Positions 475 through 47,500 are shown, counted from the first letter of the stretch. The stretch is 64,000 nucleotides of DNA from Naegleria gruberi (GCA_000004985.1 GG738872.1), one strand, 5' to 3'. Numbers and translations: made by a program. The notes: generated by a model from the letters alone, not told the origin.

Positions 475-1168
475 TATTTAAGTCCAGACCCAATGTTTCA
501 AAGTTCAAACCCTAGCCCAATTTATTGATTGTTATATCATTCGATTGTAAATGATGAGTAGAACAATGTATTATATTTAGTTTTTCAATTTATAAAATAT
601 TAACTTTGTAAATAATGTAAGATTAAAAATTTGTAAAATGAAACCATAGGAAGAATGATAATTTCAAAATCCTTTAGTGAGATTATATAGTAAATATCAT
701 CATTAACAACATTTATAATCACTTTCATATCAAATTTCAAAAGTTCAAGTCTGTAGATATAAAAGTATTGAGTGAAAAGGGAAGTAGTGAGGTACAATAG
801 GTCAACTATAACTTTTGAGTTTCTCATCAAAACATATTAAATCCTGACATGAAAATGTTCCATTTGATTAGTAAACATCGAATATCAAATTTATTTTAAC
901 TTTCATATTTAAAGATTTCTTCCCTCAATCACACATATGGTCAACTTGTATGAAAAGGTGGAAATCTTGAAAAAGGACCACCTATTGAAACTTTACCATC
1001 ATGATGTAGATGGTCTATAATGATGTACAATTCAATTTCATATCATAAGAATCAGAAATGGTACCATGGGAATGTAAATGTTGATTTTATAAAGTTGACT
1101 TTAAGGAAAGACAAGTCAGACCAACTCTATCAAATATATCACTTCAATCAATAAATTATATATGAAAA

Positions 1169-5508: not shown

Positions 5509-5872
5509 ACTTTCTAATTTCTCTCAAAGCAACAGTACCTGGCTTATATCTATGTGGCTTTTTAGGAGTACGTGTCTTGCTAATAGTTGATGGTTGTTTT
5601 ATAGCTTTTCTTGGTGCTTTGCCTCCAGTTGATTTTCTTGTTGTTTTTCTTCTTGCTAAAATAGCAGCTTCGGAAGTATTTTTACTTTTTCTAGTATTTC
5701 CTTCGGCTAAATCGGAAGTATTGGAAGAAGAAGGAACATCTGCAGATGAAAAATTTGCAACCACATCAGAAGCGACAGTAGATGAAGAGTTTGTGGTATC
5801 AGATACCATTGAATCATCAGTAGTTTCAGTAATAGAAGAATGAGAAGTAGTATTTCCAGTGATGAGAGTCAT
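5509..5872 (-). CDS. Histone H3 variant with an about 73-aa Ser/Thr/Asp-rich N-terminal extension. It is partial: the histone-fold region is lost in the gap.
   Basis: - Start codon: a true ATG at 5872 (MTLITGNTT...).
- After the extension, the sequence reads [21 protein letters not shown]...[17 protein letters not shown].
- This matches the canonical H3 tail and alphaN region: [18 protein letters not shown]...[19 protein letters not shown].
- The frame stays open into the N run at 5509. Confidence 0.75.
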
Positions 5873-5998
5873 TTTTTTAATTTTGAAAAGGTTATTCGGA
5901 GCATCAATAATTTGTACTCTCACAAAATAACTCTTTCAAATTTTGACCATCTAAAATAATTTCTAAAAAATATTAACCAACCGACAGAACTCTCAACA

Positions 5999-17533: not shown

Positions 17534-20500
17534 TTAATCTGATTCGCTGTAATATGGAGAGGCATAGGATGGTGTTGATCTAGCACCAGTCTTGTAGGCA
17601 AATCTAGAGTTATTGCTGTGAGTGAAAGGACGATTGGATCTGATAACATCTCTTTCTTGATTTCCAATAAGAGTATTATTCATAATGTCCATTCCAGAAC
17701 GAGCTTGGGCAGATGGTCTTTTAATGGTTGGTCTTTGGACACCAGAGTTCATTGATCCATAAACCACAAAGCCCAAAACTGCAATAATAAGAGAAAGGAT
17801 GATATAAGTCAAATAACCAGCAGATTCATCTTCGGTATTGTCAGTGTGGACGTGTTCTCTGACTGGTTGACGGGCTTCATTGGATACAAATCTAACAGTA
17901 ATAGGAGTAGTAGTGAGAGTGTATGACTTGGCATTTTCACCAAAGTTGACCTTGACAGACAAGTTAATATCTTGTGTTGACAAGTGCTTCAATTCACCGT
18001 TAAGGAAAGAGTCACGTCTTGGTTTGATTAAACATTCATACTTATCACCAACTTTTTCAGTTCCAACAACTTCCAACCAGCTTTGAGTAGATTCACATTG
18101 TACATTATAATTACGTCTTACTCTGGAATCGTGTGGGAATTTGACTTCTTGACTTGTGTTATCCAAAAGATGGAGTGGAATACGGGTTGGTACTTGTTTC
18201 ACTGGATCAACACCAGAACTAAGTTCAATACTTGAAAGGGAAATCTTAGCTTGAGCAATTCTGACAATGTTAACTTGGATTTGGGTGGTAGTTCTTCCTG
18301 ATTTAAGAGTAACAGTTGCTGAACCAACCTTGTGAGCAGTTCCTACACCGTTCAAATCAACACTAATAACACTAGAATCAGAGCTTTCCCATTTACCAGC
18401 CTTTTCAGAAACAAAAGTAACAGAGTCACCAACGTGAAGTTTGGCAGTTGAGGAGAGTGTGTCAACAACACTTGAAACAACGCTAATTCTGCAATAATAT
18501 GGTTGCTTCAATTCTGGAGCACTCAATTCAACAGTTGTATTACCAAGAGAATTAGAGTAGACAACAATGGCTTCCTTTTGAGCATCAACCTTTACACTAA
18601 CAATATCATGAATATTCATACGGACGTTAATATCAATACCACTAACAGAAGCAAACTTTTCACCGCGAATACCAAGAGCAGAGAGTGGAATTTCAAACTC
18701 ACTACCAATTGGGACTTGGAAGTCATAATCAAATGATTTAGTTTGGAGTTCACTCAAAGACATTGCCAAATAGTGTGGATTTTGAACAGCAACCTTTTGA
18801 GCAACAGTTTGACCGGTGGAAATTTCTTCAACAATAACAACAGAGATACCCTCAGATTCACGAGTAACAATATCACCGTTCTTACTGACAGCAATAAGAT
18901 TATCATATTCATCAGTCTTGGCAATAGTGTATTTTTGAACTGATAAATTATCCTTATTAGTTCTCAAACGGAAAGTAGCAGATCTTGGAGCAAGAATGAG
19001 ATCCTTGTGTGGGAAATCTAATAATTTCAACTTGTCATCAACTTGAATATCAGACTTGGTTGTATGGTGCCAGCTTGAAAGTTGTGGATGTTGGAATGAG
19101 GCACTAGCTGAGATTTGAGTCTTACCAATCTTAGAGCCAGTAATAAAAACAGAGTGACCAGTTTGGCTTTGTGGATAATTGATAATTGAAACTTCTTGTT
19201 CAGCAGAAGAGACAGAGACTTGGAAGAATGGAGATTGCATAAAGAGAGGAGACAAGAGTTGCTTATTATCATAGAGACCATAAACAGGTACAGGGATATG
19301 ATGTCCTTCAAAAACAAAGAGTGGTTGTGGAAGTTTGATACCTACAAGTTGAACAACACGAACTGGAACAGTCTTTCTAGCATAAACAACTGAATTCTTG
19401 ATGAGACTAATCTTTTCGACAACAAGTAATTGTTCACCATAAGTAACACCAGTAACAATTCCTCTAGCATCAACAGAGGCAAACTTGTGATCTTCCTTAA
19501 ACTTGAAAATTGTAGCAATACTTGGTGTTTCAATTGGTCCTCCAGTAACCTTAACTTGGAATTTAGCACCTGGAATCAAGACAAGCTCTGGTGGATTAAC
19601 TCTCATTGGTTCATAAACATTGACCATAAATGGAACACTATAAACTCTTCTTCCATCACTATTAAGAACACTAGCAACAAGTTTAACAACACCAACTCTT
19701 CTACCAGTCAAAACATATTCATCTGGATTAGATTCAGATTGTTTGAGTGAGATTGTGTTTGGAGTGTCAACTTCAATAGAAGTTTGCATGGCATAGTGTT
19801 GAGAAGCTGGGAAATTGGCACCAGTTTCATCGGAAACGCTCAATTTAACAGTAACATAATTGTCAACTTCGACAAATCTTTCACCATCTAAACCAACATG
19901 GTGAGCATCAGCAACTTTAACAAAACTACTAGCAGCTGGGCTGAGTTTGGAGAAGGTATCAAAAACATCAACTCTAACATAACCTGGAACAAGACCAACA
20001 AGTTCAGCAGTTGAACCCTTTGGAGCCAATGTTGCTACGTCAGTATTGTTATGAGAAAAGTCATATCTACCAGAACCACCTGTAGCTTGGAGAGTGAGAC
20101 TAACTTTACGATTTCTGAATAAAAGATAACTAGCAGGATTGAGGTAAATATTTGGAGCAATTCTGAGTTCAATTTCATCCTCTAATGGTTTAGAGAATGC
20201 TGCAATAGCTGAATTCATGATAGAATAAGAGACGTACTTCTTGACTTCATCCTTATTATATCCAATAATTTGTCCTCTCAAGTTTACAGAACCTTCCTTT
20301 TCATAAATATCCAACAATCTGTGTCCTGGATATACTTCCTTATTGGAAATTTTGGCAATATCATGGTGACTGAGTTCCCATTCATCTTGTAAAGTGGAGG
20401 TGGTAACGAAGAGATTTTCTTCACTGTCATAGGCGTTCATTACAGCTGGAACAGTTTGATTATTTCTAACACTGTAAACTCTAATAATGTGAGAGGAAAT

Positions 20501-23342
20501 TAAACCCAATTCCAATTTGGTCTTTGGATCAAGTGGAACAACCTTGATACTTTCTGGTTTTTGACAAGAGTAGTGAATATCAAGTTTGGTCAATGTTGGA
20601 AGAGCATCTTCAGCAGGAATATTGTGCTTAATTTCAACTGTCAAAATTTGCTTTCCAAAATCAAGACATGTAATAGAGAAGCTTCTCTTTCTGTACATGT
20701 CAGAAGCTCTGCTCTTTGAAACCTTGAGACGGTCTGGATCTTCAGTAACAATATTATCGACAATGACAGATTCTCCCTTAACGTAGCTATCCCATGGTTG
20801 TGGACCACCTTCAACACTCAATGAAGCAGTAGCACCCAAAGGAATGAGGAATACCTTGTATTTCTTTGGTGATGGTTCAGTGACAGCAAGTGGTGGGAAT
20901 ACAGCAACATTGGTCTTTTCTTGAATCTTTCCATTTTGATAACGGATCTTGACAGATGTGAAACCTTCTGAAATGGCATTAAGATAAATTTCAGCATCTA
21001 AATTCTTAGAAGATTTGCAAGATTGAGAGATAATATTGTAAACATTGGTATCAACAATGTTCCATTCAAAATTGAGACTAGAAATATTGTGGAAAACATT
21101 TCCATCAACATCTAAACCTTTAGCACGCAAACAGAGTGATTGAGATGGTACAACTTCTCTAGTACCCTTTTCAAAAACTAAACTATGCAATGGTGAAACA
21201 GAAACGGCACGAGCATCACCATTGTACAAGTTTTGTTGATCGAAAACAATGACATCAGCTTTACCATCCTTCTTGGCAACAAGAAGACCCAAAACAGAGT
21301 TGGCTTCCTTTTGAGATCTAATATCGAATGGTGAGACAGAAGGAGAAGATGAAGTCCATGAAAGCAAGCCACTTCCACCTTGAGCACTAAGAATAAACAT
21401 TTGTTCAACATTTCTATCACTTGGTAAATAAATAACTTCATCAGGAATATCAATCTTAACTCTAGGAAGGATAGAGATGGACTTGGTATGAGTGAGTTCA
21501 ATTTCGTCATTGTGTCCTGGGAAAATGTCAGAAGACAAGTCAGCAGTCTTCAATGTTACTCTCAAAACAACATCAGACAACTTTTTAGCTCTGACAACAA
21601 ACAAGTCTTCATTGGCAGATCTTTCAAGAATAGTGATTGGTTCACTGTCACTTGATTCAATTTCAAATTTAAATTTGAGATTCTCGGTAATATAAATCTT
21701 TTGATATTGTTGATCGAATAAATCAATCTTGACTTCATAGTCATTATCCAAAACGAGACTGGTATGTTCAGTATTGAGAGAATTCTTGAAATTTCTAACA
21801 ATATAATCATATCCTCTATAGAGTTGGAGTTTCTTAGGAGAAATATTAATCTTGATGAATGCTGGTTTGACAACATGAACGAGAGCAGTGGCTCTATTCA
21901 AAGCAAATGTAACATCCTCAACATTTACATTGGTATCACCGAGATCGAATGCCTTGAAAATACCCTTAGTTTTTTCAACTTCACCAACAGTACCATTACT
22001 TGATGACCAAGTATATTTGGCATCTGGCATGGCAATTTCCATTTGTGACTTTCCATTTTGTTTAATGAAGAGTTTGAATGGAATGACTGCACCTGGGATA
22101 ACTCTCAATTCAGTGTCTGGCTGTAATAAAAAGCTATCGACAACAGAAATAACAACACTATCTTGTAATACTTGAATTTCTCCTGTTGTTGTTCTGAGAG
22201 AGACGGATACCAAAACTTCACCAGATAACAATCCTCTAGCAACAATAACATCATGACTTCCGACACTTCTCTTGATTCTCTTCTTTTCATCAAAGAAATG
22301 AACAGATTCATCATTAATATCAATTAATTCAATGTTGCCTCTGTTGTTGTTAATATTATTATTATCATTAATAAAATTATTAAATGATGACAATGAAGTA
22401 CCATCAAAATTGAATAGATAGTAAAATATTTAGAAATACTATAAAAACTACTAATACATACTGCTTCTTTGAGGTCTTTAAACCTTCTTGTTTCCAAATA
22501 AAACTCAAACCTGTCAATGAGCTGAAAAGATTTCCTTCATTATCAAAGGCGTCAACTTGCAATGTTTCAAGTTCTCCAATAGTAAGCTTTCTCACAGTAG
22601 TTTGCAATTTAATCTTGTCAATAGAGGAGATGAAAACTTCACAACTAGCTGATGGAGATGATGATGTTTGAAGGGATGGTGGATATTTAGATGCTTTGAC
22701 AATAGCAACTCTGGTATTTGTGTTATGACCTTTTGGAATGACCTGTTGTTGTTGTTGTTGTTGTATAATATTATTATATTTCACACAACATTGTTATTAA
22801 TATTATTGTATTCCACACATTTTTGTCATCATCATAATATAATAATTTAATAATTGAAATTAAAATTCCATCAATTCGATCCATTAACAAATACTTACTT
22901 GAATTTCTTGAGAGCAACTAATAATTCTAGAATCATCAGAGGAAGAAGTCTCGATATTATCAACAGGAACCAATGATACTAAATCAGGATGGAGAGTACT
23001 CCAATAAAAACAATTTTGTTTGTCATCCTCGTTCAATCCTACAGTGTTGGCTTTCAATGTAATACCATCACTGTTCCATGTTATCAAAGCACTAACTCTG
23101 TTTAATAAAATTGGGGAATTTTTAGATGTTTCATGTTGGTAGGAAGGACGAGCGAGTGCTAAAAAGATGAGTGAAACAATAAAAATTACTACGAATGATG
23201 GCTTAACAAGAGATGATTTGGTTTGTCTTCTTGTAGCAGCAGCTATTAAATTCTCGCATTCATGATGTTTTGTATTCAATGTGGATTTTGACGAGTGCGA
23301 GAACCACATTTTTTTTCGAGGTTTTTTTGTTGAAGGTGGCAT
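17534..23342 (-). CDS. Large type I membrane glycoprotein, about 1,860 aa. It has Ig-like/BIG2-type repeats, a single C-terminal TM and a short cytosolic tail. Architecture and size resemble nuclear pore membrane glycoprotein gp210 (NUP210/Pom152-like). Three exons: 22900..23342, 22462..22742, 17537..22340.
   Basis: - Start codon: ATG at 23342 (an alternative start is the Met 11 codons downstream).
- Intron 1 donor: CAA|GTAAGT. Intron 1 acceptor: caacaacag|GTCATT.
- Intron 2 donor: AAGCA|GTATGT. Intron 2 acceptor: aacaacag|AGGCAAC (about 120 nt, Asn-codon-rich).
- C-terminus: GYLTYIILSLIIAVLGFVVYG, then a roughly 75-aa basic/Ser-rich tail.
- The gp210 identity is inferred from architecture, not from a recognised signature. 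Confidence 0.5.
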
Positions 23343-25494: not shown

Positions 25495-28400
25495 ATGGTC
25501 GGAACAAGAACAAAGAAGGAGCTGCTTGAATCATCAATGCAGAATTTATCTAGTTTTATTGCAGAGGCAGTACAGAGAGAGGAATCAACAAATACCTCTC
25601 TTATTCAAAACATGGTTCAACCAACAACAAGAACGTCATCTTTGCCAACATCACCACTCTCTACAACATCAAACAATAATCAACTTGCATCAAATTCTAC
25701 AATACCATCGTCATCATCATCAGCACATGTTTCCTTCAATACTCCGGATACCATAGAAAATATTTGCAAAAACCAATCATCTTCCAATAGGTTCAATAAT
25801 AATAATTTGATTATTAATACATCCATGATGGCGATGATGAATAACGAATATAATAACCAACCATCAACATCCACTCCAACAAGTCTTAAAGTAAGAACTA
25901 TTTCACCTCTCCACGATTCTCCACCTCCTTCATCCTCTAATTTTAGCAATAATAATAATATGGAAATGATAACAGCAAGTAGTAGAGGGTCGTACTCTAG
26001 AAGACAATCACCTTATGATCCATTTGCTCAACAATTATCTCTCTCACAATATACCTTACAATCATCAAAGAGTGTAAATACAAGCGTTAATAATAATAAT
26101 AATAATATGAATAACAACAACAACAATTCAATAAGGGATGAGAATGAACATCATCACCATCATCACCACCATCATGATCCATCGAAATGGGAACGAAAAC
26201 TGTTAGAAATTACCAGAGTAGCGTTCGTATCCATGCTAGGCTCCAAGAATAAGAGATTAAGCGAATGGACCTTGATGAATCAAATTTCGGAATCCTTAAC
26301 AGACATTACATCGAGTCAATTTTGCATCATTTTGAAAGCAGTTAATCCTCCTTCCCAACAACAAGAATCAAATTACAATACTAATTCACCAACTCATTCT
26401 CCTTCACCAACCACTAACAATCCACCAGATGTCAGTAATGATGTGCATTTACAAGTTATTGGAATTTATGGTATTGAAACAGAGGCTGCCAAATTGTTTG
26501 TAGCTCCATATAGACACAAGGTTCCAACAAGTGGACCTCATTCAATATTTGCCCATTGTTACAATAGACAACAAATTATTATTAATAATTTGAGTTCTAC
26601 AACTAATTTACCACCAGGACATCTTCCAATTTCCAACTCGATATGTGTTCCAATATGTTATGGAAAGGAATGTATCGGTGTAGTTTTACTATCTAATAGA
26701 TTTTCAGGATACAGAGAGGATATGGAAAAATCACTGGTCGCTTGGGCCCAATCCCTTGGTCAAATGTTGAAAATGTATGCTGTACTCTTTGAGAATGAAA
26801 CTGGCCAATCATTCTTTGACACATCTAATATCAACATGCCCCCTGTGACTGTAAATCCATATGGAAGCAAATTCAGGAGAGAGTATGGAGATTCACCAAT
26901 TTCTTGCATGCCTGGAAGACTTCCTCATCCTTTCGATTTCAATGCAAACCACATAAGAAGAGCATCCATTTCAAATATTCAAATCTCAAAACCTGCAGCT
27001 TATTTAGGAAAATTAGGAAAGTCTAAAAGCAGTGGGAATGTCTTTACTGTAAATGATAGAGTTAGTAGAAATAGTTCATTTAGCAGTGTTTGTAATGACA
27101 ATGATTCCGAAAGTGGTGAATGTAAAAAATCATTACGTATTGATGTTAGTAATGATGTTGATGGAATGGATCAAGACGAAAGAAGAGTCCCAAATAGAAA
27201 TTTTTCCGCTAGTCCTTGTAGTAGTGTTAGTAGCGTTTCAGATAGTCATGGTGAAGAGTATCAAGATCCAATTTCGCTATTTGAAGAAATTGAAAATGAA
27301 ATGCTAAAGTCGGCAGAGTTATCTCTGGCTCTATTTAAGGCAGTTCAAGACAGTATTTTAATTCTCGATCAAAATCTCAATATTACTACTATGAATCCAA
27401 GTGCAAAAAAATTCTTTGGTGTTTCTACTAATCAATCTCCGAATACTAGTATTCCCTATATGGGTAATGGATCTCAGATCATTTCAGTCAGAGATTTGAT
27501 TCCAGACAATTCTACTCAACATTTGAATTGGTCTGAAGTTTGTAAACCTAATGGAGTTAGTTGGTATAGAGGTAAGGCTCTGGCCAAATGTAGAAATAAT
27601 AACAACTTTGACAATAACAGGACAGCATCCGGTTTACTCATGGCCTCACACTCACCATCGACAACAGTAACAAACTATGTGGAACTTCTTTCAAATACAC
27701 CCCTCTCACCAAATACATCTGCAGGAACAATTTCTCCTACAGGAGTAGAGGATCATTCTATGAATAGGAAACAAGATTCCAGTCAAGATTTTAGTAGACT
27801 TGTACCAATTGCAATTTCTGTAACAAGTTTCTTTTTCAAGGAGGAGATTTACTTTTCTGTGACTGTAACTGATGAATCATCAAAGGAAGACATGAAAGAC
27901 AAGATGAAGTTTATCGCCTTCTTGAGCCACGAGTTGAGAAATCCAATTCAAGTGATTGTTTCAGGAGTTCAATGCCTAGTTGACATTTTCAAAGATAACG
28001 AAGATTCGGATGATATGGATAATGGAAAATCAATTATTAAGAGTATTTCATCATCTTCAGATTTCATTTCACACATTATCAATGACATGATTGATTTAAC
28101 AAAGTTGGAATCTGGTCACATGAAAGTAATTGAGTCATCATTTAATATTAGAGAGAAGGTAGAGCAAATAGTGGAAATGTTGAAAATTTATCAAGTAGAC
28201 AAGAATATTGACATCTCTTACCAAATAGATGACGCTGTTCCTCAAAATTTGTACTCTGATGCTACAAAACTTCAACAAATCATTCTAAACATAATGTCAA
28301 ACTCATGTAAATATACCAAGAGTGGAAGTGTTCGACTTGTATGCTCTTATGAAAACTTAACAGAAGATAACAAACCAAAAAAGAATATCATTTTCAAGAT

Positions 28401-29058
28401 TCAAGATACAGGTGTAGGAATTGAGAAGGAAGAAATCCCAAAGATTTTCAGAATTTACAGAAGACTGCACAGAAAGCAGCATGAAGTTTCTGGAAGTGGC
28501 ATAGGTCTTGCATTGTCTAAGCTTTTGTCAGACATATTGGGATGTACAATTAGAGTTGATTCTGAAAAGAATATAGGTACCACTTTCACAGTCATTGTCC
28601 CTCACCGATTGAATCCTAATGTACCGGAAACAGATCAAGAGCAACAGTTGCAAGAAGTGAAGAAACCTTCCCAAGAAATACCAATAGAGGAATTATTAAA
28701 AGATAAGAGAGCACTAGTCGTAGATGATAATGAGCTTATTAGAAAGCTTGTGAAGAATATGCTCAAAATGTGTAAATGTGAAGAAGCAGAAAATGGTCTA
28801 GAAGCTTTAAAGAAGTGTGAAGAACATGAATTTGATTTTATCATTTTAGATATTATCATGCCTCTAATTGATGGTTTTGAGGCAGCCAAAATTTTGAGAA
28901 ACGAACGTAAAGTCAAGACTCCAATTCTTGCATTGACAGGAAATTCACTGCAGGAAGAAATTGATGCCCTTCTTAAAATTGGTGTCAATAAGGTAATGAT
29001 CAAACCGATCAAAAGATTAGAACTATTCTCTGAATTGAGAGATGTACTAACTGAATAA
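25495..29058 (+). CDS. Hybrid sensor histidine kinase, 1,187 aa. It has an N-terminal low-complexity region (poly-N, His9), a GAF-like domain, a PAS-like domain, HisKA, HATPase_c and a C-terminal receiver domain.
   Basis: - Start codon: ATG at 25495.
- HisKA H-box: FIAFLSHELRNPIQ.
- N-box: LQQIILNIMSNSCKYT.
- G-boxes: IQDTGVGIEKEE ... GSGIGLALSKLL.
- Receiver domain: ALVVDDNELIRKLVKNMLK...FDFIILDIIMPLIDGFEA...ILALTGNSLQEEIDALLKIGVNKVMIKP. Confidence 0.85.
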   Translation: MVGTRTKKELLESSMQNLSSFIAEAVQREESTNTSLIQNMVQPTTRTSSLPTSPLSTTSNNNQLASNSTIPSSSSSAHVSFNTPDTIENICKNQSSSNRFNNNNLIINTSMMAMMNNEYNNQPSTSTPTSLKVRTISPLHDSPPPSSSNFSNNNNMEMITASSRGSYSRRQSPYDPFAQQLSLSQYTLQSSKSVNTSVNNNNNNMNNNNNNSIRDENEHHHHHHHHHDPSKWERKLLEITRVAFVSMLGSKNKRLSEWTLMNQISESLTDITSSQFCIILKAVNPPSQQQESNYNTNSPTHSPSPTTNNPPDVSNDVHLQVIGIYGIETEAAKLFVAPYRHKVPTSGPHSIFAHCYNRQQIIINNLSSTTNLPPGHLPISNSICVPICYGKECIGVVLLSNRFSGYREDMEKSLVAWAQSLGQMLKMYAVLFENETGQSFFDTSNINMPPVTVNPYGSKFRREYGDSPISCMPGRLPHPFDFNANHIRRASISNIQISKPAAYLGKLGKSKSSGNVFTVNDRVSRNSSFSSVCNDNDSESGECKKSLRIDVSNDVDGMDQDERRVPNRNFSASPCSSVSSVSDSHGEEYQDPISLFEEIENEMLKSAELSLALFKAVQDSILILDQNLNITTMNPSAKKFFGVSTNQSPNTSIPYMGNGSQIISVRDLIPDNSTQHLNWSEVCKPNGVSWYRGKALAKCRNNNNFDNNRTASGLLMASHSPSTTVTNYVELLSNTPLSPNTSAGTISPTGVEDHSMNRKQDSSQDFSRLVPIAISVTSFFFKEEIYFSVTVTDESSKEDMKDKMKFIAFLSHELRNPIQVIVSGVQCLVDIFKDNEDSDDMDNGKSIIKSISSSSDFISHIINDMIDLTKLESGHMKVIESSFNIREKVEQIVEMLKIYQVDKNIDISYQIDDAVPQNLYSDATKLQQIILNIMSNSCKYTKSGSVRLVCSYENLTEDNKPKKNIIFKIQDTGVGIEKEEIPKIFRIYRRLHRKQHEVSGSGIGLALSKLLSDILGCTIRVDSEKNIGTTFTVIVPHRLNPNVPETDQEQQLQEVKKPSQEIPIEELLKDKRALVVDDNELIRKLVKNMLKMCKCEEAENGLEALKKCEEHEFDFIILDIIMPLIDGFEAAKILRNERKVKTPILALTGNSLQEEIDALLKIGVNKVMIKPIKRLELFSELRDVLTE

Positions 29059-29820: not shown

Positions 29821-32800
29821 CTATTTGAAATAAGTGAGAGAAAGCAATTGTGATGCAGATGGTCTTTGTTTTGCATCTTTTTCTAACATTTTCAAAACTA
29901 TTCGAATCAATTCTTCAGAATATTCATTGTGTGTTGTTTCCTTCATTTGATTCGTCAAAATTTTAAGTGCATTCTCGGCTTGATTTCCCATTAGCAAGTT
30001 ACCAATCGATGTTGCTAGATCGTTGGTCATGATTTGATAGATTGAAATTCCCAAAGAGAAGATATCCGTGTTAAATGAATATGAACTTCCAAGTGCAACT
30101 TCAGGACTCATATCTGAAAGGTTTCGTTTAAAATTTTAGAATAAACAACTCTCAACTTACAGAAAGGAGTTCCTGCATAGGACTGACCCGACATTTCTTG
30201 ATACTTTTTAGCCAATCCAAAATCTGCCAATACAATTTCAATACTGTCACTTGACAGTTTCTTGATAAAAATATTAGTTGGCTTAATATCTCTGTGAATA
30301 ATTTCCATTTCTTCGTGAACGTATTTCAATGCGCTCAACATTTGTTTCAAAATTTGCTTTACAATCTCTTCCCCACAATTTTCTTGTTTCAATTTTGATA
30401 AATCTCCCAATTCATAAAAATCCATGTCAATAATCAACAAATTATCATTCGTAATGAAATAGTCATTAATTTTGATAATATTTGGATGTTTGGTATTACT
30501 TAATTGAGATGCTTCTTTCATAATTGTGTTCAAATCTGTCAATGATTCGAATTTAACAGTCTTGATTGCTTTCAATTTGTTTGTTTTTAAATCTCGCACT
30601 TTGTAAACACTTCCAAAAGCTCCTTGTCCAATTCTTGAAATATCACCATATCTGGAAAATGGATTCGATTGATCAGAGCCAGAAGATGATGAGATAATCA
30701 TTGAACTAATAGAAAGGAAGGTACTTTCCCAAAGTTCACCCTTTCTAGTTTCCAATTCAGCTATTTCACAATCCTCATGCTTTTTCTTCTTCTTTACCAA
30801 ACACATGAATATTACAACAATGAAAATTATCAATGCAAGAAGCAAAATCAAGACGAATACAACAACTATTGGTACGACAATGGCAATGATCAACCCAGTT
30901 GCTGTAAAATCCTGACTTTTCTGAATTTCACAAAACTCTCCTTCAAATCCACTCTTACATTGACAAATGTTAAAATCAGAACATTGTCCATTTCCATTAC
31001 AAACAGTTTCAGATATTGCTAATGTTCCATTACAAGTCAATTTGGAATCGCATGTATTATTCCAAGAATTATAGATGGAGTTTTCATCACGACAATAGGG
31101 ACTAACCTTTCGAATATAAGAATTGCCATCAATGAGAAAGATTTCTCCACTACTTTCGTCATAGTCAACTTGTCTTGAGAACAAAGTAAACATTGAATAG
31201 GTTCCAAATCCATCTCCATTGAATTTTGAGGCTTTAGATCTTGAACCAGCAATATCCAACAGTAATCCGCTTTGTTTCGAATACATTCGAATAATACAAG
31301 TACCAACACCATCCAAAATAATGATATCTCCATTCTTTTTCACATGGAAAGCAGAAGGATTGTCTAAGGATGATTGAAGTGCTGGAATTCCATCTCCTGA
31401 ATATCCTACTTGGAAATTACCAACTAGAGTTCTCAAATAAAAAGTAGTTTCGGATAACTTTTCGATTCGTCTAATGGATTCTGGCGTACAAAAATAGAAA
31501 TAACCATCTTGGTAGAGAAGATTTGTTATTTGTCCTGTACTTGTTTCGTTACTAATTATTCCATCAGAAGAAATTGGAATTCTATTTGAGAATGCAAATT
31601 CTAATGAAATTAATTGACTTTTCAGATTATATCTAATTATGGAAAAAGGTGTGGATAACAGTAAATCACCATTTGTATCATCAATGGTCATTCCAGTTAC
31701 AGTGTTAAATGCTGGACAAGGCGAATCAGTTCCCTTTACACCAATCAAAAACGAACCACACGACTTTCCAATAATTTTTTCGAAACTCATAGTTTCCGGG
31801 TCGATTCGAATAATTCTACAAATGTCCTTAATATAGATTTTTCCATCAAACTTGGAAAAGATTCCATAATTCCTAACCACATTTGGCAATATATTCAATG
31901 TTAAATAGGGTGTATCTATTGGAGCATTTTGGTTTGTAAACATTGAAGTACTGAGAGAGATTGACTTTCCACTAGTTTCGTCAAATTTCTTCAAAGTTCT
32001 ATTATCAATAAAGTAGATGATCTTCCTTGTTGAATCTCTCATTAAAATAAATGGGTTTAAAGTTCTGCTACTTGGGGTTATTCCAGCAATGGTTGCAATT
32101 TTTCTATTCGAAATTTCACTAATGTGAAAAAGATTCGTCACAATAATGCTCGAGTTTTGTCTGATAGCTGAAGGGAAATATCTTTTAAACGAGTTTCGTA
32201 TTGAATTTGAAATAAATTGAACACTTACAGAGCAGAATTTTCTATTGGAATATTCTCACCATTGAATCCAGTAATATGGAAGGGTTGAATATTATTCGAA
32301 ACATTGACTTGTAGGCCAGAAATTTTCTTCAGTGAACAGTTTTCCAATTGAAAATCATAGAGTTGACCTGCATTCCAAAAAAATAGAGCATTTTTACCAT
32401 TCTTGGAAATTCCATTAAAAGGAAAAGTTGTTGGAATTGGAATAGTAATAACTGACGTTGATCCATTCTTAAAATCGAGATATTCGTACAGAGTATTCAC
32501 AGCATTCGAATAGGAAAATATTGAATTACAATTAGGATATCTTAAATTTGGAAAAATACTAATTCCATCATTCCCTTTTTCTATAATTGGTAAAGTATAC
32601 AAAACAGTTGAATTTTGAACAGCTAGTACAAAATTAGGAGCATTTCTAACAAAAATTGTCGAATTGTCAAACGAATCTCCAACTGCAGCCAACAAGGAAG
32701 AAGAAATATATGGCGCGGTAGAAAATACAAATTTCAAAATTTGATTTTCCAAATTGAAATTGTAAATTCGACCACTATCACTATAAATTAATAAATCACC

Positions 32801-34157
32801 ATTTCCAATATAAAATGCATTTAACATATGGAGAGAAATACGTTGTGGAATATTGGCACTGTACTTGGGAACAGTTTCTGGTTGACAGCCCAAAACTGTT
32901 TGTAACTTTCCATTCGAAACCTTTCGTAAGTAATAGTAACTGTCAACAAAGTACAACTCATTATTGTGGTAGAATGGGAAAGAAGGAGTTCCTGTTGAAT
33001 ACATTTGGAATGGAGAAATATTTTCACCTTTTGGGTGAATAACTATTCCACCAGATAATGTGGAAACCATTTTGCTTTGTAAATCAATCTTTCTAATACA
33101 TCTATTCGATTTATCTGCCACTATTACTGTATTTTGAGTGACAATCAAAGACGATGGTTCATAAAACTTGGTATTTGAAGAATCGTATAATTGATTATCG
33201 CCACTGTATCCCTCTGAACCTCCAACTAAAATTTGACTTTGGGCAGAATTCACTAATTTCATTTGTACGAAATTATTAGTTTGAGATGAAGTGTAAATTT
33301 CACCTCCATTAGTAACATAGACACCATATCTTTGAATTGGTTATTAATTACACCATTCAATTATTCACTTACAAATTAGATTGAGCCACTCCTCCATCCA
33401 CAATTCTATAATTTCCATTTTCGTCAATTGACTTGAGTCTTTCTGCATCTGTGAAATAGACAATATCCTTATTTCCATTAGAAATAACGAATATATTCTT
33501 TGGAGATTGTAATTTCAAAAGCTTGGCATCTACACCATCATAATCACCATTTAAATAACCACCTCCTCCAATGACAGTAATTTGTAATGTTGAAATTTCG
33601 TATTTTTTGATTAAATTATTATCTGTATCTGAAATATAAACAAATCCATTCACAGAAACATAAACACCTCTTGGATTATTAAACGTATGTGCGATAGATG
33701 ATGTTGTTCTTGTTCTATTCGAAACTATTCTAATCCTGTTGTTGAGTGAATCAGCAATAAACAAATCACCATTTAATGGATTCACAGATACAGCTGTTGG
33801 TGTATCCAACAAAGTACCCACAGCCTTCAATCCATCTCCATTATATCCACTCGTTACATATCCAGCATAAACCTCTACCAATGACATTGTGTTAAAAATC
33901 CTAAAAACTAAATGTCTCTCAGCATCCGAAACAAATAAATCACCATTCAAACCGAGACACATTCCAGTGGGGGATAACATGTAGGCATATTTTGCCTCCT
34001 CCACTCTTTCTAAAGTATTGTAAAAACCATCCAGTGTTTGTATGTAATAATTGGGAGGTGTCGATAAGGAAGATACTGTTGAAAGATTAGTCAAGAATCC
34101 AACAATGACAACAAGAAGAAGATAAAAGTAAGTGAGCGGTAAAGGTCTGGTCAACAT
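29821..34157 (-). CDS. Receptor Ser/Thr protein kinase, about 1,390 aa, 4 exons. Exon 1 is 33373..34157. Exon 2 is 32229..33319. Exon 3 is 30161..32181. Exon 4 is 29824..30113 plus the stop codon. It has a signal peptide, about 18 NHL-type beta-propeller repeats, a Cys-rich EGF-like module, a TM and a kinase domain.
   Basis: - Introns and splice sites:
  - Intron 1 donor: TT|GTAAGT. Acceptor: ccaattcaaag| (43 nt).
  - Intron 2 donor: CT|GTAAGT. Acceptor: gtttaaaag| (47 nt).
  - Intron 3 donor: TTCT|GTAAGT. Acceptor: cctttcag| (47 nt), which splits AGTPF|YMSPEV.
- NHL-like repeats: GDGxxA...L..P.G....NGDL[FI][IV][AS]D.
- Cys-rich module: CNGTLAISETVCNGNGQCSDFNICQCKSGFEGEFC.
- TM: LIIAIVVPIVVVFVLILLLALIIFIVVIF.
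- Kinase motifs: GQGAFGSVYKV, AIK, HRDIKPTNIF, DFG, SPE.
- Start Met: the one preceding the hydrophobic signal MLTRPLPLTYFYLLLVVIVG. An upstream in-frame ATG at 34337 is an alternative. Confidence 0.7.
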
Positions 34158-34978
34158 GTTGGTGCTTATTTTTTTTGAGCATAATTTCAAGGTATTATGT
34201 GTTAGTACTATCTTTCCTGAATAGGCAGGTGAATTGTGTTGCGCTATACGTAAACAATGAGCAATGTTGGCAGTCTGGTCATTTTGAGTGTAACACAAAC
34301 AACAAAATTTCCATGTTTTTTCTGAATAAGCACACATCTCATAGTTTACAATAAGGTGAAAATAAAAAAAATTAAATCAAAAAGAAAAGTTGAAGAGGGT
34401 TTTCAATTGAAAACCTTATCCTTGTTGATCATCATAACTATTGTTCAATTGTGTACCATTACAGTAATATATTACTAATACAAAATGTTATATATTGTTT
34501 TAAGAAGAAAAATTCAAGGAAATATATATGTTGATGTGTAAAATAGAATAGATGGAAATTTTCAAGAAAGAACCAATATAAATTTTATATTAAAATTATA
34601 ATAAAACAATATTGAATATTTAAGCCGAGCTGTTTCACTTTTACTTTCTTTTTTACCAATATTTACAATCCCTCATTTACACAAATAGAGAATCTTCAAA
34701 ATACTTTAATATAAAATAAATTTACCAAAAAACCACTTTCTAAACTACCACCTTCTGTACTGGCACCTCAGTAATCTATCTCAGGAGTCCCTCAACTCCC
34801 AGCACCAATCAACAGCTCACAGGAGTTGAACATCATAATTTATGCATTTGCACGATATTTTCGCGTTTTACCTCCCTAAATTTCTCCTCATAGAAGGTAA
34901 AAGAGAGCAAATCAATTTTGAAGCAAATTTCACAAGAAAAAAAAACTCGCGAATCATCAAACTCACAAACACTTTGAA

Positions 34979-40451: not shown

Positions 40452-41533
40452 AATAAAAGATATATATTTTCCAAATAATTCTTAAATCAATTATTCCTCT
40501 TATTGTTTTAATAAAAAGAAGAAGGAATGATGTAAAAAGTATTGCAATATTAACTAGCTAATGGGTATTTCTGGTATACCTCGATCAGCAACGATATATT
40601 GACGACCTATATTCAAATTAATGGTGCGCTGCAGCCTAAAACAATGGAGCAGAGACGGGGACTTGAAATTGTTGAGTAACATCCATCGTAGAATAATTCC
40701 GTTCACGATCAAATTATTTGCAAAATTCTTACGATTATGGTGCTACCATTTTTTTAAAAATATTAATAAAAATAATTATCTAGAAGATATTCAACACAAA
40801 GATTCGTCAACTAATTTACTTCAAGAAATTAGAATATCTTTTAAAAAATCATCTTTTTGACATCATGGTTGACAATAATACCATCATTAAATAAGCGCCT
40901 ATAATAATTGTTTTGGCGCAAATTCCTAATAAGGTCGCTTTGTTTTTGTACAATTCAACAAAAAGAGTCTTATTTTTGTCTTCAACAAAGCACAACATCA
41001 AAGCAAGCTTAACCAAGAGATTCACAAGAACTAATGGAGGCTCTTTGAAAAATAAATCAAAAAAAAACATCAATTTGGTTTTTGCTTGAGACACAACGGT
41101 TCAGAGTTTTATTTAGCCAAATTCCTATCTATCAATAATCTAGAAAATCGATCTGATTATTTTTCGGAATTGTCTTTTACTAGTGATTAGTAATAATAGA
41201 AAGTCTTAAGCTAAAAGCTCCGAAGAGTAAGTAGAGTCATATTTAATGTTTCTGACATTTGGTTCTGTATGAATACAATCTTGATGGTGCACTATGCTAC
41301 TTTTGTGATACTACTGTTTTAAATAACAAATCTGATCATCATTGTTGTATACAAATATATTTGTATTCAATTTAATAATACTGTGGATCACAACTTTTTG
41401 TATTGGACGGATTACTATTCCAATTTTATACAATCACCTTTTATTAATCTACCAACAACACTTCTTACAACAATCACTGTGTATTCTTATACTCATCAAC
41501 ACTCGAAAAAACCAAAACAACAACAACAAAACG

Positions 41534-44500
41534 ATGCAACCAATAGAAAATATGTTCTCTGGTCTCCTAGATTCGAGTAACAAACAAAACGAGGACTCCT
41601 CCAATGAAGTCACTTCAGTGGACAGTCCCTCAAAATCTAAAAAAGTGTCTGGTATTAGACGTGCTGCTTCAATTCAAGTCGGATTGAGTGATTTCGAATT
41701 GAGTGGTACTAATGTGCCTAATCCAGAATCTATTTCTTTAACACATTTGAGTAAATATGCTATCACTCTGGCTGGTATGCACGAAGTAGTAGAAGAAAAG
41801 AAGGAATTTGTCAAGCTTATCAAGAGATTAGACGAAACAGCCAGTATTATTACTCAAGCACACGATATTATTTATGAGGCAATTATGCAAAATCGTCGTA
41901 TTACTAGTAGTGATGAATGGTTGGTCGATAATTTTTGGATGATCAAGGAACAAATCCACATGACAAAAAAACACTTGCCACTAGGATATGAAAAGGAAAT
42001 GCCAAAGTTGAATAATACAAAATGTGCAGGTTATCCACGTATTTATGGTATTATTTGGGAATTGATTAACTTGGTAAATGGTCAAGTAACAGAAGAGAAT
42101 ATTTTCCAATTTGTCAAATCTTATCAATCTGTCAAACCATTGACAATTGGTGAATGTTGGGGTATTGGTGTTATGCTTCGTTTAGGTCTTTTAGAAAATA
42201 TTAGACGTGTTGCTGATGGTATTATTAGCAGAAGACAAGATTGTAACCTGGCTGATGCTTGGGCAGATCGTTTATTAACTAGTGCTGAAAAGAGTAGTCG
42301 TGATGTTGTTCAAATTCTGTATCAATTATCACAAAGTGAACCTATTATTACAAATGCTTTCGTCTTACAAATTAGTCAACGTTTACAAGGTTCTGATCCT
42401 GTTCTTTCAATTGTAAATACATGGTTAGAACAACAATTGAGTATTAAGGGTATTGATATCGATCAAATTTTCAGAATGCAAAAGCAAGCTAACTCTTCTA
42501 ATCAAGTTACAATGTCATATTCTATTAACTCTTTGAGATTAATTAACAATTTTAATTGGAAAGAGTTTGTTGAAAAATTGAGTCATATGGATGTTATTCT
42601 TCGTAAGGATCCTTCTGGTATTTATTCATATCAAAATTTCCATACCAGAGATAGATGTAGACACGCTATTGAAAGAATTGCAAAGAGATTCAAGATTGAT
42701 GAAAAGCAAGTTGCCAACAAGGCACTTTCCCTAGCAAAGGAAAATCATGAAGTTTTACAGTCATGTGTTTTAGGATCACCAAGAAGAACAAGGTCTGGTA
42801 GTGATGCTGAACCTCCAAGCTCTCCTGGATCCTCTCCTACTGCTCTCTCACCTCGTAGTGCTAGTAATGTTATTAGGAATATGAATCCAGATCAAATGTA
42901 TGACATGAAACTTATTCGTAGAAAAGCTTGTATTACCTATTGGTTGCTTGAAGATGAAGGTATTAAGGAATTGCATAGAGCTTTAGGTTTTAGAATGAGT
43001 CGTTTACCATTTTCATTTGATTTAAGATTCCCAAGCTTTATTACTTCAATTATTTTCTGGACTTGCTTATTTGCTATTGCTTACATTTTCATGACAAAAC
43101 ATTCTTACCAAACACAATTTGATAGATATCTTCCATTTAGTGGAGTGGAAAGTTTGAAATTATATTTTGTTTATGAAAAGTATCTTGCCTTGGTTTTATT
43201 GTATATATCAGTTTTATTTGTAGGAAGTCAACTTGCTGTTAGTTTGACTAACATGACTTTTGTTAGACTCAAATATCCAGCATCGTTGCCATCTATGGAT
43301 TTCAGTACAACAGGTATTCCTGATGAACACAGATCTATTGTTGTAGTACCAACAATGATAACAAGTTCAGATGGTATTAATGAATTATTGTCAGATTTAC
43401 AAGGTAGATATCTTATTAACAGGGACAAGAATATTGTGTTTGGTTTAATTACTGATTTTGGAGATTCAAAGACTGAAACTACTGAAAAAGATGATGCTCT
43501 CGTCAAGCAAGTTGTTGATGGTATCAATGAATTGAACAAAATGTACACAAGAACTCCTGAAGAACAAAGATACTCCAAGACAACTTTCTTCCTCTTCCAC
43601 AGAAAGAGATTGTACAATCCAGTTGAAAAAGTTTTCATGGGTTGGGAACGTAAGAGAGGTAAATTGGCTGAATTCAATACATTTATTTTACATGGTGAAA
43701 AGGGAAGTTTCAGTCATATTATTGGTGATACTACCAATTTGAATACTGTCAAACACGTCATTACATTGGATACTGATACCATGTTACCTTCAGATGCTGC
43801 TCGTGGTTTGGTTGAAATTGCTGCTCACGTTTTGAACGAACCTGTTATTGATAATCAAACTAAACGTGTTACTCATGGTTATGGTTTGCTTCAACCTCGT
43901 GTTAGTAATGGTTTTACTGGTTCTACTAAGTCACTCTATGCTTATATGCACAGTATGGATTCTGGTTTGGATCCTTATACTAGAGAAGTTAGTGATGTTT
44001 ATCAAGATACTTTTGGTGAAGGTTCATTCATTGGAAAGGGTTTGTACAATGTTGAAACTTTTGAAACTGTTTGTGGCGAAAAGTTCCCAGAAAATAGAAT
44101 TCTCAGTCACGATTTGATTGAAGGTTGTTTTGTCAGATCTGGATTGACTTCTGGTATTGAAGTTATTGAAGATTATCCATCAAGTTATGGTGTTGAAGCC
44201 TCTAGAAGACATCGTTGGATTAGAGGTGACTGGCAAATTGCTAGTTATGCTTTCAGTCCTTTCATCTTGACTGCCAAGGGTTATGAAAAGAATACCTTGT
44301 CTGCATTGCATAGATGGAAGATTTTCGACAATTTGAGAAGATCTCTCGTTCCAGCTGCTATGACTTATTTGATTATGAGTACTGCTTTGTTCACTTCCTA
44401 TCACTCCAAGTTGCCATTCGTTGCTGTTCTCGCTGTTCTTTCAATTTATCTCATTCCAACAACAATCAATACTATTATTGATGTTGTCAAGAAACCTGAA

Positions 44501-47500
44501 GATGCTACTTGGCAAGAGCACTTTAAGAGAATCCGTTTCAATCTCTTACGTACTTTTGTTGATATTTATGTTGAATTGGTATTCACTCCTTTCGAAGCTT
44601 ACAACAATATTGATGCTATTATTCGTTGTTTATTCAGATTGTATGTTAGTGGTAAAGGTCTTTTGGAATGGACAACCTTCCAATCTGCTAGTAGTATTTA
44701 CAAGACTAATTTGTTCTTGGCCATGTCTAGATTGTTGTGGTTCCCAGTCTTGTTGACTACCTCTATTATTGCTTACATTGTCATTCAACATAATACTGCT
44801 GTTGCTTATAATGAATGGCAAACGTATGGTTTCACTAGAAGACCATTCATGTTGGCCAGTAATCTTATTACCATTATTCTCATGTTTGCCAGTTGGATTC
44901 TTTCACCATTCATTGCCTACTACTTGAGTAAGCCATTGAAGAAGAATCTCTTTGAGAGAGAAAATTTCAATGACCTCACCAAGGATGACAAGGTCTTCTT
45001 GCATGTCTTGTCTCGTAGAACTTGGAGATTCTTTGAAACATTTGTCAGAAAGGAAGATAACTATCTCCCACTCGATAACTACCAAGATTTCCCAAAGCCA
45101 ATGCTTGCTCGTAGAACCAGTCCAACTAATATTGGTCTTGCTTTGCTTGCCAATTTGGGTGGTCACGACTTTGGTTATATTACTAATAATGAATGTGTCA
45201 CTCGTATTCACAATACTTTGTCTACACTTTCCAACATGGATCGTTATAAGGGACATTTCTACAATTGGTATGATACTCAAGATTTAAGACCATTGTGGCC
45301 TAAATACATCAGTGCTGTTGACAGTGGTAACTTGGTTGGTCACTTACTCATTTTGAAGGCAGGTTTGGTTGAATTGAGCGACAACGTTCCAATTATTAAT
45401 ACTGATACTTATGTTTCTGGTTTGAGAGACAACTTGTACAGTATGCAATTCATCCTCAAAGAAGTTGAAAAGACAACCGATACTGACGAAGAAGAACTCG
45501 TTTACTTTGACATTAATGAAATCAAGCCAATGATTGAAGACTTGCACACCAAGTTGGATAACAAACCAACTAAGATTTCCAAATTGATTCGTTGGTACAC
45601 TGAAATTAAGGCCAGTTCCAAGAAATTGGAAGAAAGCTTGAATGAATCCCTCAACAAGCTTATTGAAGCCAGTAAGGATGACAGTCAAGCAGATATTGAA
45701 TGGCTCGCTGAAGACATTGAAGAAAGGTGTGAAAAGCAACTCTTATTCTATTCTCAATCATTCGTTCATCTAGTCTCTGAAATTGCTCAAGAATTGAATG
45801 AATTGGTTCCATTCTCCAAGCATTGGGATTTGCCTGAGGAATTAGTTTCACCTCCAAGCTCATTGGCTGGACTTTTAGAAAATGAAGCTATCACTCAATT
45901 CACTCAACAATTCAACAAGATGAATATTGAACAATTGACTCTCAGAGGTATTCTTGGTGTCAAGGAACAATTAGGTATTTCAAAGGTTAGTAAGGTATTG
46001 GGAAGCCTTAAAGTTACTGGTTCAACCTCTAATTTATCATCTGGACCAAAGGGAGTTGAAGCTTTGAAACGTTGGGTTACAGAATTGGAAGAATCCATTG
46101 TCAATGCTGAAAGTGAAGCCAAGAAGCGTTGTAACAAGTTGAAACGTCTCATCAATACTACTGATGATTTGATCAAGCAAGACTTTAGCTTCTTGTATAA
46201 TCCATCTCGTGATTTGCTTGTCATTGGTTACAATGTTGAATCTGACAGAATTGATCAAGCTCACTACGACATGTTCTGTTCTGAAGCTCGTCTTATCAGT
46301 TACGTTGGTATTGCTTTGGGCTATTTCCCAGTTAAACATTGGTTCTCCATGAGTCGTCTTATTACCACTCAAGGTACTCACCCAGCATTATTGTCATGGT
46401 CTGGTTCTGCCTTTGAATATTTGTTGCCACTCAACGTTATGCCAAATATTCCAGGTACTCTCCTCGATTCTACCTACCATGCTGTCGTCTTACGTCAAAT
46501 TGAATATGGTAAACAAAAGAATATTCCTTGGGGTATGAGTGAAAGTGCTTACAATTTGATGGATGCTAATCTTGTTTATCAATATGGTCCATTTGGTGTT
46601 CCAGGTTTGGGTTTGAAGAGAGGTTTGTCTAATGACTTGGTTGTTGCACCATATGCTACTGTTATGAGTTTGATGGTTCTTCCAAAACAAGCCACCAAGA
46701 ACTTGAGACGTTTGAACGAAATGAATTTCTTGGGTTGTTATGGTATGATTGAATCTGTTGACTTTACTCCTCACAGATTGAGAGGTAATATTGATGCTCA
46801 ACCAATCAAATCTTTCTTTGCTCACCACCAAGGTATGTCATTCCTCAGTTTGTTGTACTGTTTGAAGGCACAACCAATGCAAAGAAGATTTATGGCTGTT
46901 CCAGAATTTGCTGCCAACGTTTTGTTGCTTCAAGAAAAGATTCCAACAGTTCCACACATTTCCAATCCAAATGAAAAGGAAACAGAACGTTGGAAGAATG
47001 TTGGCTACAATCTCCCTTGTGCTAACAGACAATTCCAAGGTTTACACACCTATCCAGAAGTTCACATGCTCAGTAATCACGCCTTGCACGTAATGTTAAC
47101 TGTTAACGGTGGTGGTTACATTAAATATGAAGATATGAGTGTTACCAGATGGAGAGAAGATGCCACTCTTGATGGTTATGGTGTTTTGATTTATTTCAGA
47201 GATATGCAAGATAAGACTGATGTCTGGTCTGCTACATCCACACCAATCAAGGCCTCTAATGATAGTAATTATTCAGTCACTTTCAGTCAAGCTCGTGCTG
47301 AATTTAGAAGAAAACACAAGGGAATGACCACAGAAACAATTGTTACAGTTTCTCCATTGGATAATGTTGAAGTTAGACGTGTTAAATTTACCAATAATAC
47401 TAACAAGACAAAGGAAATTGAATTTACCAGTTATGGTGAAGTTGTTTTGAATCAAGGACGTGCTGATGCTGCTCACAGAGCCTTCTCTAACTTGTTTGTC

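Follow-up and report, generated by a model that had tools for sequence, protein, structure and literature searches.

Does a run of four successive open reading frames (ORFs) on one strand of Naegleria gruberi DNA represent four small genes, or the exons of a single large one? The question arises in a stretch of 64,000 nt (GCA_000004985.1 GG738872.1; "the window" below always means this whole stretch, and positions are counted from its first letter), in which an ORF track places four minus-strand frames at 34337-33369, 33262-32225, 32141-30108, and 30111-29821. An initial annotation of the sequence had joined them into one receptor kinase with an extracellular part built of NHL repeats. Our analysis comes to the same answer, and we put the probability at about 0.9 that, in gene model and architecture, this is one four-exon minus-strand gene (34157-29821) encoding a 1,399-amino acid (aa) type-I transmembrane (TM) receptor Ser/Thr kinase. 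The joining of the four frames is upheld by a full-length match to the Pfam Pkinase profile, by gapless alignments to Naegleria proteins, and by introns conserved in five homologous loci.

Exons, introns, and reading frame

The hexamer GTAAGT occurs exactly three times on the minus strand of this region, at 33372, 32228, and 30160, and each occurrence coincides with the end of ORF 1, 2, or 3. Upstream of introns 1 and 2 the ORF stop is the TAA inside the GTAAGT donor itself. When the first AG after each donor is taken as the acceptor, the exons join into a single 4,200-nt ORF of 1,399 aa plus stop. The GTAAGT…AG introns of 43, 47, and 47 nt and the frame kept open over the junctions are thus as first annotated; the protein length had been put slightly low (~1,390 aa), and one junction coordinate, 33319, was wrong, exon 2 starting at 33329, with the other coordinates right. 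The gene is made up of the following parts, the blade numbers being those of the propeller count discussed below:

33373-34157, minus strand: exon 1, aa 1-261 plus 2 nt; start ATG at 34157, predicted signal peptide, blades 1-4 of the first NHL propeller
33330-33372, minus strand: intron 1, 43 nt, GTAAGT…AAG, phase 2, in-frame TAA within the donor
32229-33329, minus strand: exon 2, aa 262-628; completes propeller 1 with blades 5-6 and opens the divergent middle propeller (blades 7-11)
32182-32228, minus strand: intron 2, 47 nt, GTAAGT…AAG, phase 2, in-frame TAA within the donor
30161-32181, minus strand: exon 3, aa 629-1302; blade 12, third propeller, EGF module, TM segment, juxtamembrane region, kinase subdomains I-VII
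30114-30160, minus strand: intron 3, 47 nt, GTAAGT…CAG, phase 1; splits the kinase between GTPF and YMSPE
29821-30113, minus strand: exon 4, aa 1303-1399 plus TAG stop; kinase subdomains VIII-XI

For the choice of acceptors, every AG 25-149 nt past each donor was enumerated. Several of the others leave the frame open, but the longest ORF comes from the 43/47/47 combination alone, which also takes the first AG each time, restores GTPFYMSPE, and agrees with the acceptors conserved in the homologous loci. The window as a whole holds no excess of GTAAGT (19 observed versus 23.6 expected), so that enrichment in itself is no evidence for introns. The chance of three such hexamers falling on three successive ORF ends is about 1e-10, a rough estimate assuming ~10 sites per strand per 64 kb. 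Other genes in the window have GTAAGT introns of ~42-113 nt bridging long open frames, which makes short introns look like the norm for this genome.

The Pfam Pkinase match spans aa 1142-1398 and profile positions 3-263 of 263 (1.3e-57, 195.6 bits against a cut-off of 31.7). An end-to-end match of this kind is possible only across junction 3, where the subdomain-VIII motif GTPF/YMSPE is rebuilt (the slash marking the junction), which supports splicing there. Junctions 1 and 2 are gapless in a colinear alignment to P0001, a 1,204-aa predicted protein of N. gruberi (49% identity over 1,245 columns), and at junction 1 (QSNL/YGVYV) there is no gap relative to either P0001 or P0273 (NAEGRDRAFT_71976, XP_002672884), also from N. 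gruberi. A multiple alignment that includes P0273, P0129 (C9374_002334, N. lovaniensis), P0138 (N. gruberi), and P0278 (FDP41_002843, N. fowleri) shows no gap at any of the three junctions. The C-terminal end of P0001 reads …GTPLCKFLHNWSI, and read-through of intron 3 in the window gives …GTPFCKLRV…; both fit T/GTAAGT in frame, so the P0001 model appears to stop inside intron 3, and the phase-1 GTAAGT intron in the kinase would be common to the window gene and P0001 (judging from the P0001 tail CKF…). In P0127 and P0273 the kinase intron appears to lie a few nt downstream, as read from the protein tails.

Five homologous loci (L001-L005), all on contigs of one European Nucleotide Archive (ENA) metagenome, ERZ929261 (PRJEB11402), were fetched and compared, and in all five GTAAGT stands at homologous positions and phases. 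Intron 1 measures 43 nt in the window, L001, and L002 and 47 nt in L003, its position and phase unchanged. Intron 2, always of phase 2, is 47 nt long in the window and in L003, 42 nt in L004, 48 nt in L001, 63 nt in L002, and 66 nt in L005. For intron 3 the window and L005 agree in length (47 nt), the interiors having diverged between identical exon flanks (…/ATATGAGTCCTGAAGTTGCACTTGGAAG). Variation in length by non-multiples of three is the behavior of noncoding spacers. Exon 4 is 88.5% identical to that of L005, and exon 1 is 79-85% identical to those of L001 and L002.

The closest of these loci, L004, is 98.2% identical at the nt level to window positions 32772-30049. Its exon substitutions fall at codon position 3 in 27 of 39 cases (22 synonymous, 17 nonsynonymous); the sole frame-breaking indel, a 5-nt deletion at 32188-32192, lies within intron 2, and the sole exon indel is 3 nt long, in a poly-Lys run. 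In intron 3, L004 has A for T at 30154, which puts an immediate stop into its read-through frame. The ratio of nonsynonymous to synonymous substitution rates (dN/dS, Nei-Gojobori) over the spliced coding sequence is 0.20 versus L004 and 0.33 versus L005, the mark of purifying selection.

The start codon was chosen with the same loci. An in-frame ATG at 34337 was rejected: in L001 and L002 an in-frame stop stands a short way ahead of the ATG that corresponds to 34157, so 34157 is preferred. A run of eight A upstream of the start ATG is common to the window gene, L001, and L002. A tblastn search of the 1,399-aa model against the window found no paralogs there.

Some further observations concern these loci and introns. 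Besides the 98% match to the window gene (L004), ERZ929261 holds four homologs of 47-85% aa identity, at 31-34% guanine plus cytosine. L004 is probably from the same species as the window, and the five loci are probably either paralogs of one Naegleria-like genome or copies from several co-occurring species. Around positions 1938-1940 of L003 the frame of the exon-3 homolog shifts between two adjacent tblastn segments, either because this is a pseudogenised paralog or through an error of metagenome assembly. Introns 1 and 2 are both of phase 2 and interrupt their blades at corresponding points, between S-N/A-L and a following aromatic residue (QSNL/YGVYV and NSAL/YFPSA). This could stem from an ancient internal duplication in which the intron was copied along, but the case is weak, the two introns being seven blades apart, not six.

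Two readings would deny that this is a single working gene, and both are effectively excluded. Four separate small genes, one for a kinase fragment and three for secreted or NHL-like proteins, might be argued from the ATG or GTG present in each of the four ORFs and from prokaryote-style gene callers, which split the homologous metagenome contigs in the same way, so that exon-level products of the family appear as stand-alone "genes" on ERZ929261 contigs. Yet the fourth ORF holds kinase subdomains VIII-XI only and the third a kinase cut ahead of the APE motif, neither of which could fold as a kinase, and the Pkinase match is complete only after splicing. The stops of ORFs 1 and 2 lie in conserved GTAAGT donors, the intervals between ORFs differ by lengths that are not multiples of three while the flanking exons are conserved, and annotated models from three Naegleria species run contiguously over all junctions; we consider four genes extremely improbable.

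A decaying pseudogene copy, or a catalytically dead pseudokinase serving adhesion only, has these points in its favor: the family is multicopy, the gene is ~30 kb from a telomere, the homologous locus L003 shows a change of frame, and one of the two EGF modules of the N. gruberi paralogs has been lost. Against this, the spliced ORF is open across 1,399 codons, dN/dS stays at 0.20 versus L004 and 0.33 even versus the paralog-grade L005, the catalytic motifs GxGxxG, AIK, HRDxKxxN, DFG, and SPE are all intact, and so are all splice sites, which are also conserved. Decay or loss of catalysis is accordingly very unlikely.

Ectodomain, membrane segment, and kinase

The domains placed on the spliced model, beyond the first two propellers, are these:

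34068-34157, minus strand: predicted signal peptide, aa 1-30, MLTRPLPLTYFYLLLVVIVGFLTNLSTVSS; aa 1-32 form a hydropathy peak; putative cleavage site
31056-32048, minus strand: predicted third six-bladed beta-propeller, NHL/teneurin type, aa ~674-1004, from the AlphaFold model
30930-31034, minus strand: EGF-like module, aa 1012-1046, single, six Cys, …CQCKSGFEGEFC
30798-30902, minus strand: TM segment, aa 1056-1090, with KKKKK after it; sole internal peak of hydropathy (3.9), kept in L004/P0126
29827-30644, minus strand: protein kinase domain, aa 1142-1398; intron 3 falls within these coordinates

The receptor topology in the initial annotation agrees with the hydropathy profile, in which only two segments are hydrophobic: a signal-like h-region at aa 1-32, and aa 1051-1096 with a core at 1056-1090, followed by the KKKKK stretch. 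All 12 N-x-S/T sequons lie N-terminal to the TM segment and none C-terminal to it. The predicted order, on hydropathy, is that of a type-I single-pass protein, with an N-terminal signal, one TM segment, and the kinase C-terminal to it. Pfam likewise returned all three of the domain types expected from the initial annotation (NHL, EGF, and Pkinase), with the kinase motifs intact. The isolated EGF piece matches EGF_2 (29.5 bits) and EGF_Teneurin (26.3 bits). Two N. gruberi proteins, P0001 and P0273, have two EGFs at this site, the first of which is absent from the window gene (a 10-aa gap).

The ectodomain, of ~1,000 aa, is built of four-stranded blades. NHL repeats had been claimed through three ORFs, which is more than the sequence bears out: the Pfam NHL match is significant in exon 1 only, and the middle propeller is not recognizable as NHL by sequence or fold search. 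The structure models nevertheless show four-stranded blades throughout. In the whole protein, NHL (PF01436) scores 57.9 bits against a cut-off of 20 and TEN_NHL (PF25021) 44.4 bits against 27.1. It is exon 1 (NHL 58.6 bits, TEN_NHL 45.9 bits) that takes the whole-protein NHL score above threshold, exon 2 alone reaching 18.6 bits for NHL, under the cut-off of 20, and exon 3 only a weak TEN_NHL match of 16.3 bits.

The AlphaFold model of aa 630-1050, built on a 4-sequence alignment, has a predicted template modelling score (pTM) of 0.71 and contains six four-stranded blades. Its best fold matches in the PDB are the NHL domains of teneurin-2/3/4 (E 1e-13 to 1e-10, TMq ~0.55), followed by those of SOQ1, Mei-P26, Brat, and NHLRC2. 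For exon 2, five four-stranded blades were modelled confidently (residues 115-335 of the piece), with low-confidence strands for two more, and the fold search returned only generic propellers at low TM-score because the modelled piece cuts across two propellers. From the motif count together with the modelled strands we infer ~18 blades, which would form three tandem six-bladed propellers at aa ~40-355, 356-665, and 674-1004. The first and last of these are NHL/teneurin-like, and only these two are demonstrably NHL-type. The first propeller is 47-60% identical to N. gruberi, and the middle one, at 30-36%, diverges most.

In the kinase domain the catalytic motifs are all intact (GQGAFG, AIK with K1169, HRDIKPTN, DFG, and SPE), and DIFSLG is present as well. 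HRDIKPTN and GTPFYMSPE are Ser/Thr-type signatures. Given its intact motifs, the domain looks like an active Ser/Thr kinase, a prediction made from sequence. The nearest solved kinases among the PDB matches listed are NEK1, NEK2, STK24/25, and PAK1, all at ~1e-29, and the domain cannot be placed in one classical kinase group; the 60 best PDB matches listed include no IRAK/Pelle-type kinase, the type similar to the receptor-like kinases (RLKs) of plants. To the kinases of the N. gruberi paralogs P0001 and P0273 the identity is 72%. Its exon-3 part is 80% identical to P0130 (NAEGRDRAFT_33549, N. gruberi), and exon 4 aligns to P0130 and P0273.

The Naegleria family and known receptor systems

Word-indexed homolog searches returned mostly generic kinase and NHL matches; the family was recovered by an exhaustive HMMER search of 1.84 billion representative proteins with exon 3 as the query, of which the best 150 matches were examined. 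The top match is 98% identical and lies on an ENA contig; no identical protein, and no near-identical one with a name, was found in the databases. Every named protein among the best 150 that matches both ectodomain and kinase is from Naegleria, and the matches listed include at least ~12 family entries from N. gruberi, at least ~7 from N. lovaniensis, and at least 2 clusters from N. fowleri. In addition to P0001, the members are as follows:

N. gruberi: P0273, P0128, P0134, P0135, P0137, P0138, P0143, P0200, P0294; partial, P0130 and P0140
N. lovaniensis: P0129, P0131, P0132/P0285, P0149, P0184, P0218
N. fowleri: P0275/P0136, P0278/P0279

These proteins are labelled "predicted", "hypothetical", or generic kinase in the databases. 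In six members run through Pfam, an N-terminal NHL/TEN_NHL region and a C-terminal Pkinase were found in all six and an EGF in four. The order of parts in the Naegleria proteins is that of the window gene (signal, NHL-type propellers, EGF, TM segment, C-terminal Pkinase), and P0001 and P0273 are 49% identical overall to the window protein, which differs from the N. gruberi family members in its single EGF, against their two, and in the greater length of its TM segment. Several public models look partly defective: P0001 is without its N-terminus and breaks off within intron 3, P0130 consists of the kinase only, and in P0273 a piece of the TM segment is spliced out that a near-identical ENA ORF, P0127, has intact. 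The window gene model is more complete than these. The architecture is not new to databases, being that of a multigene family shared by three sequenced Naegleria species (N. gruberi, N. lovaniensis, and N. fowleri); the novelty here is modest and consists of a further member, a better gene model, intron positions kept across paralogs, and the three-propeller picture.

Other combinations of the same parts were seen alongside the family. On ENA contigs, P0167 pairs the EGF-TM-kinase module with an RCC1-like propeller, P0256 has NHL repeats and a long teneurin-type EGF array ahead of a module of the EGF-TM-kinase type, and P0147 has an EGF, a GPS-like HLTSFAV motif, a TM segment, and a kinase. 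P0018, from N. lovaniensis, has NHL, EGF, GAIN/GPS, and a TM segment, with no kinase. Ectodomains varied to this degree suggest that the surface receptors of these amoebae have been modularly shuffled.

The initial annotation had regarded receptor kinases with NHL-propeller ectodomains as unusual outside a few protist lineages. Among the best 150 matches, the named proteins that match both regions all come from Naegleria (see above), and the actinobacterial proteins with both domains have them in the opposite order. PknD of Mycobacterium tuberculosis and the PknD-like kinases of actinobacteria combine a Hanks-type Ser/Thr kinase, a TM segment, and an extracellular NHL propeller, as the window protein does, but in these the kinase is N-terminal and the NHL region C-terminal (in P0195, Frankia WP_322755685, the kinase is at 9-200 and NHL begins at ~418), whereas the window protein has NHL N-terminal and the kinase C-terminal. 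PknD has a single propeller, against the three proposed for the window protein, and Pfam marks 10-12 NHL stretches in the Frankia protein. PknD-type kinases have no EGF module, unlike the window protein. The match of P0195 covers only residues 510-673 of the exon-3 query, at 31% identity, and its kinase is not specifically related. PknD-type kinases look like an analogous solution, not the same family. The structure of the PknD sensor was reportedly described by Good et al. in 2004, in J Mol Biol.

Teneurins supply the best fold match of the third propeller (E ~1e-13), at only 14-19% identity in the structural alignment, and the teneurin Pfam models TEN_NHL, EGF_Teneurin, and EGF_TEN match the window protein. 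EGF is the membrane-nearest module in both. Teneurins are type II and lack a kinase, whereas the window protein is type I, and Pfam finds in it no YD-repeat shell and no Rhs, Tox-GHH, FN-plug, TTR, or toxin domain; it does not belong to the teneurin class.

The ectodomains of plant RLKs and of Entamoeba transmembrane kinases (TMKs) consist of leucine-rich repeats, lectin domains, or CXXC repeats, not NHL propellers. With plant RLKs and the TMKs of Entamoeba histolytica (PMC2880585) the window protein shares a common logic of signal peptide, repeat ectodomain, single TM segment, cytoplasmic kinase, and multigene expansion. Its kinase is closest to NEK, STE20, and PAK among solved structures, unlike the RLK type.

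Chromosomal setting, proposed function, and meaning

The window begins at a chromosome end, as indicated by ~75 tandem copies of ACCCAA in positions 1-463, a TTTGGG-type repeat on the other strand, with degenerate ACCTAAAAACCCAA units at its inner edge. TTTGGG has been put forward as a candidate telomere unit for N. gruberi (PMC3622300). The repeat, and the Naegleria proteins that are the best matches of the receptor, mark the window as Naegleria-like. The receptor gene lies ~30 kb from this repeat. Two runs of N mark assembly gaps at 1169-5508 (4,340 nt) and 10573-10807 (235 nt), and the long "ORFs" over 1148-5923 are artefacts of the first.

Between the gaps and beyond them, the window contains several other long frames. 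At 6538-9303 (minus strand) a 921-aa ORF, whose sole Pfam match is a C-terminal chromodomain, is possibly the remnant of a mobile element near the telomere. A nucleoporin ORF resembling NUP210, with several NUP210 Ig domains, lies at 17534-22393 (minus strand). The convergent neighbor of the receptor gene, at 25495-29058 (plus strand), is a hybrid histidine kinase with GAF, HisKA, HATPase_c, and receiver domains and with tracts of poly-Asn and of poly-His. An uninterrupted ORF of 3,195 aa at 41342-50929 (plus strand) matches the GH94 supersandwich (1.5e-151) and GH94 catalytic (6.8e-106) domains and a glucoamylase-like domain; it resembles the cyclic beta-1,2-glucan synthases of bacteria, is unusual in a eukaryote, and is a candidate for horizontal transfer.

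As to function, the propellers may bind an extracellular ligand or surface, with bacterial prey, glycans, and other cells all plausible. Such engagement would alter the oligomeric state of the receptor, and the NEK/STE20-like kinase would then autophosphorylate its activation loop (DFGLAKKYQEMSGQSYAGTPFYMSPE) and signal into the cell. Several points weigh against the receptor kinase reading or mark its softer parts. Ligand, dimerization, and downstream signaling are wholly conjectural, and the mechanism is much less certain than the gene model. In the latter, removal of the three introns is deduced from comparative evidence, and homolog comparison is likewise what places the signal-peptide cleavage site and favors the ATG at 34157 over that at 34337. 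The hydrophobic segment, at 35 residues, exceeds a typical single TM helix. The structure models were built on alignments of 4-5 sequences and have a mean predicted local distance difference test score (pLDDT) of 63-66. Three six-bladed propellers are a count, the modelled pieces spanning neither propeller 1 nor propeller 2 whole, and the middle propeller gave no significant NHL signal in Pfam on exon 2 or in the fold search. Our searches of the literature on Naegleria NHL proteins and receptor kinases yielded no description or experimental study of the family, and a broader search on receptor kinases listed no Naegleria paper among the results shown.

The protein might instead be mainly an adhesion molecule, for contact of the cell with substrate or prey, its kinase governed by clustering or mechanical load rather than by a soluble ligand. 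The nearest structural match, the NHL domain of teneurins, comes from adhesion proteins, and the EGF matches are also teneurin-type; the Naegleria protein P0018 pairs NHL and EGF with a GAIN/GPS adhesion-receptor module and has no kinase, and a relative on an ENA contig, P0147, brings an EGF, the GPS-like motif, a TM segment, and a kinase together. The domain order, on the other hand, is the reverse of that in teneurins, and the YD shell and toxin parts of teneurins are absent. A primarily adhesive role strikes us as less likely than not.

Returning to the receptor kinase, we offer a broader and tentative proposal, which we hold at somewhat below even odds: Naegleria and its close relatives may have built a large receptor Ser/Thr kinase class of their own, independent of the receptor tyrosine kinases and TGF-beta receptors of animals, the RLKs of plants, and the TMKs of Entamoeba. 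Its conserved EGF-TM-(NEK/STE-like) kinase module would be fused to interchangeable ectodomains, which in the proteins compared here are sets of three NHL propellers, a propeller of RCC1-like type, EGF arrays of teneurin type, and a module resembling GPS. Perhaps the NHL propellers are bacterial in origin, and the fast-evolving middle propeller would set the ligand specificity of each paralog, for instance toward prey or self.

The family has been present in public genomes since 2010, and on metagenome contigs prokaryote-style ORF calling breaks genes of this kind into pieces. For a family whose public Naegleria models are fragmentary, the locus provides a comparatively validated four-exon model. 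Naegleria, including the pathogen N. fowleri, would possess a sizeable set of multi-propeller surface receptor kinases. As a surface-exposed family, these proteins are candidates for the sensing of prey, hosts, and other cells, and their value lies in giving such work a defined target family.

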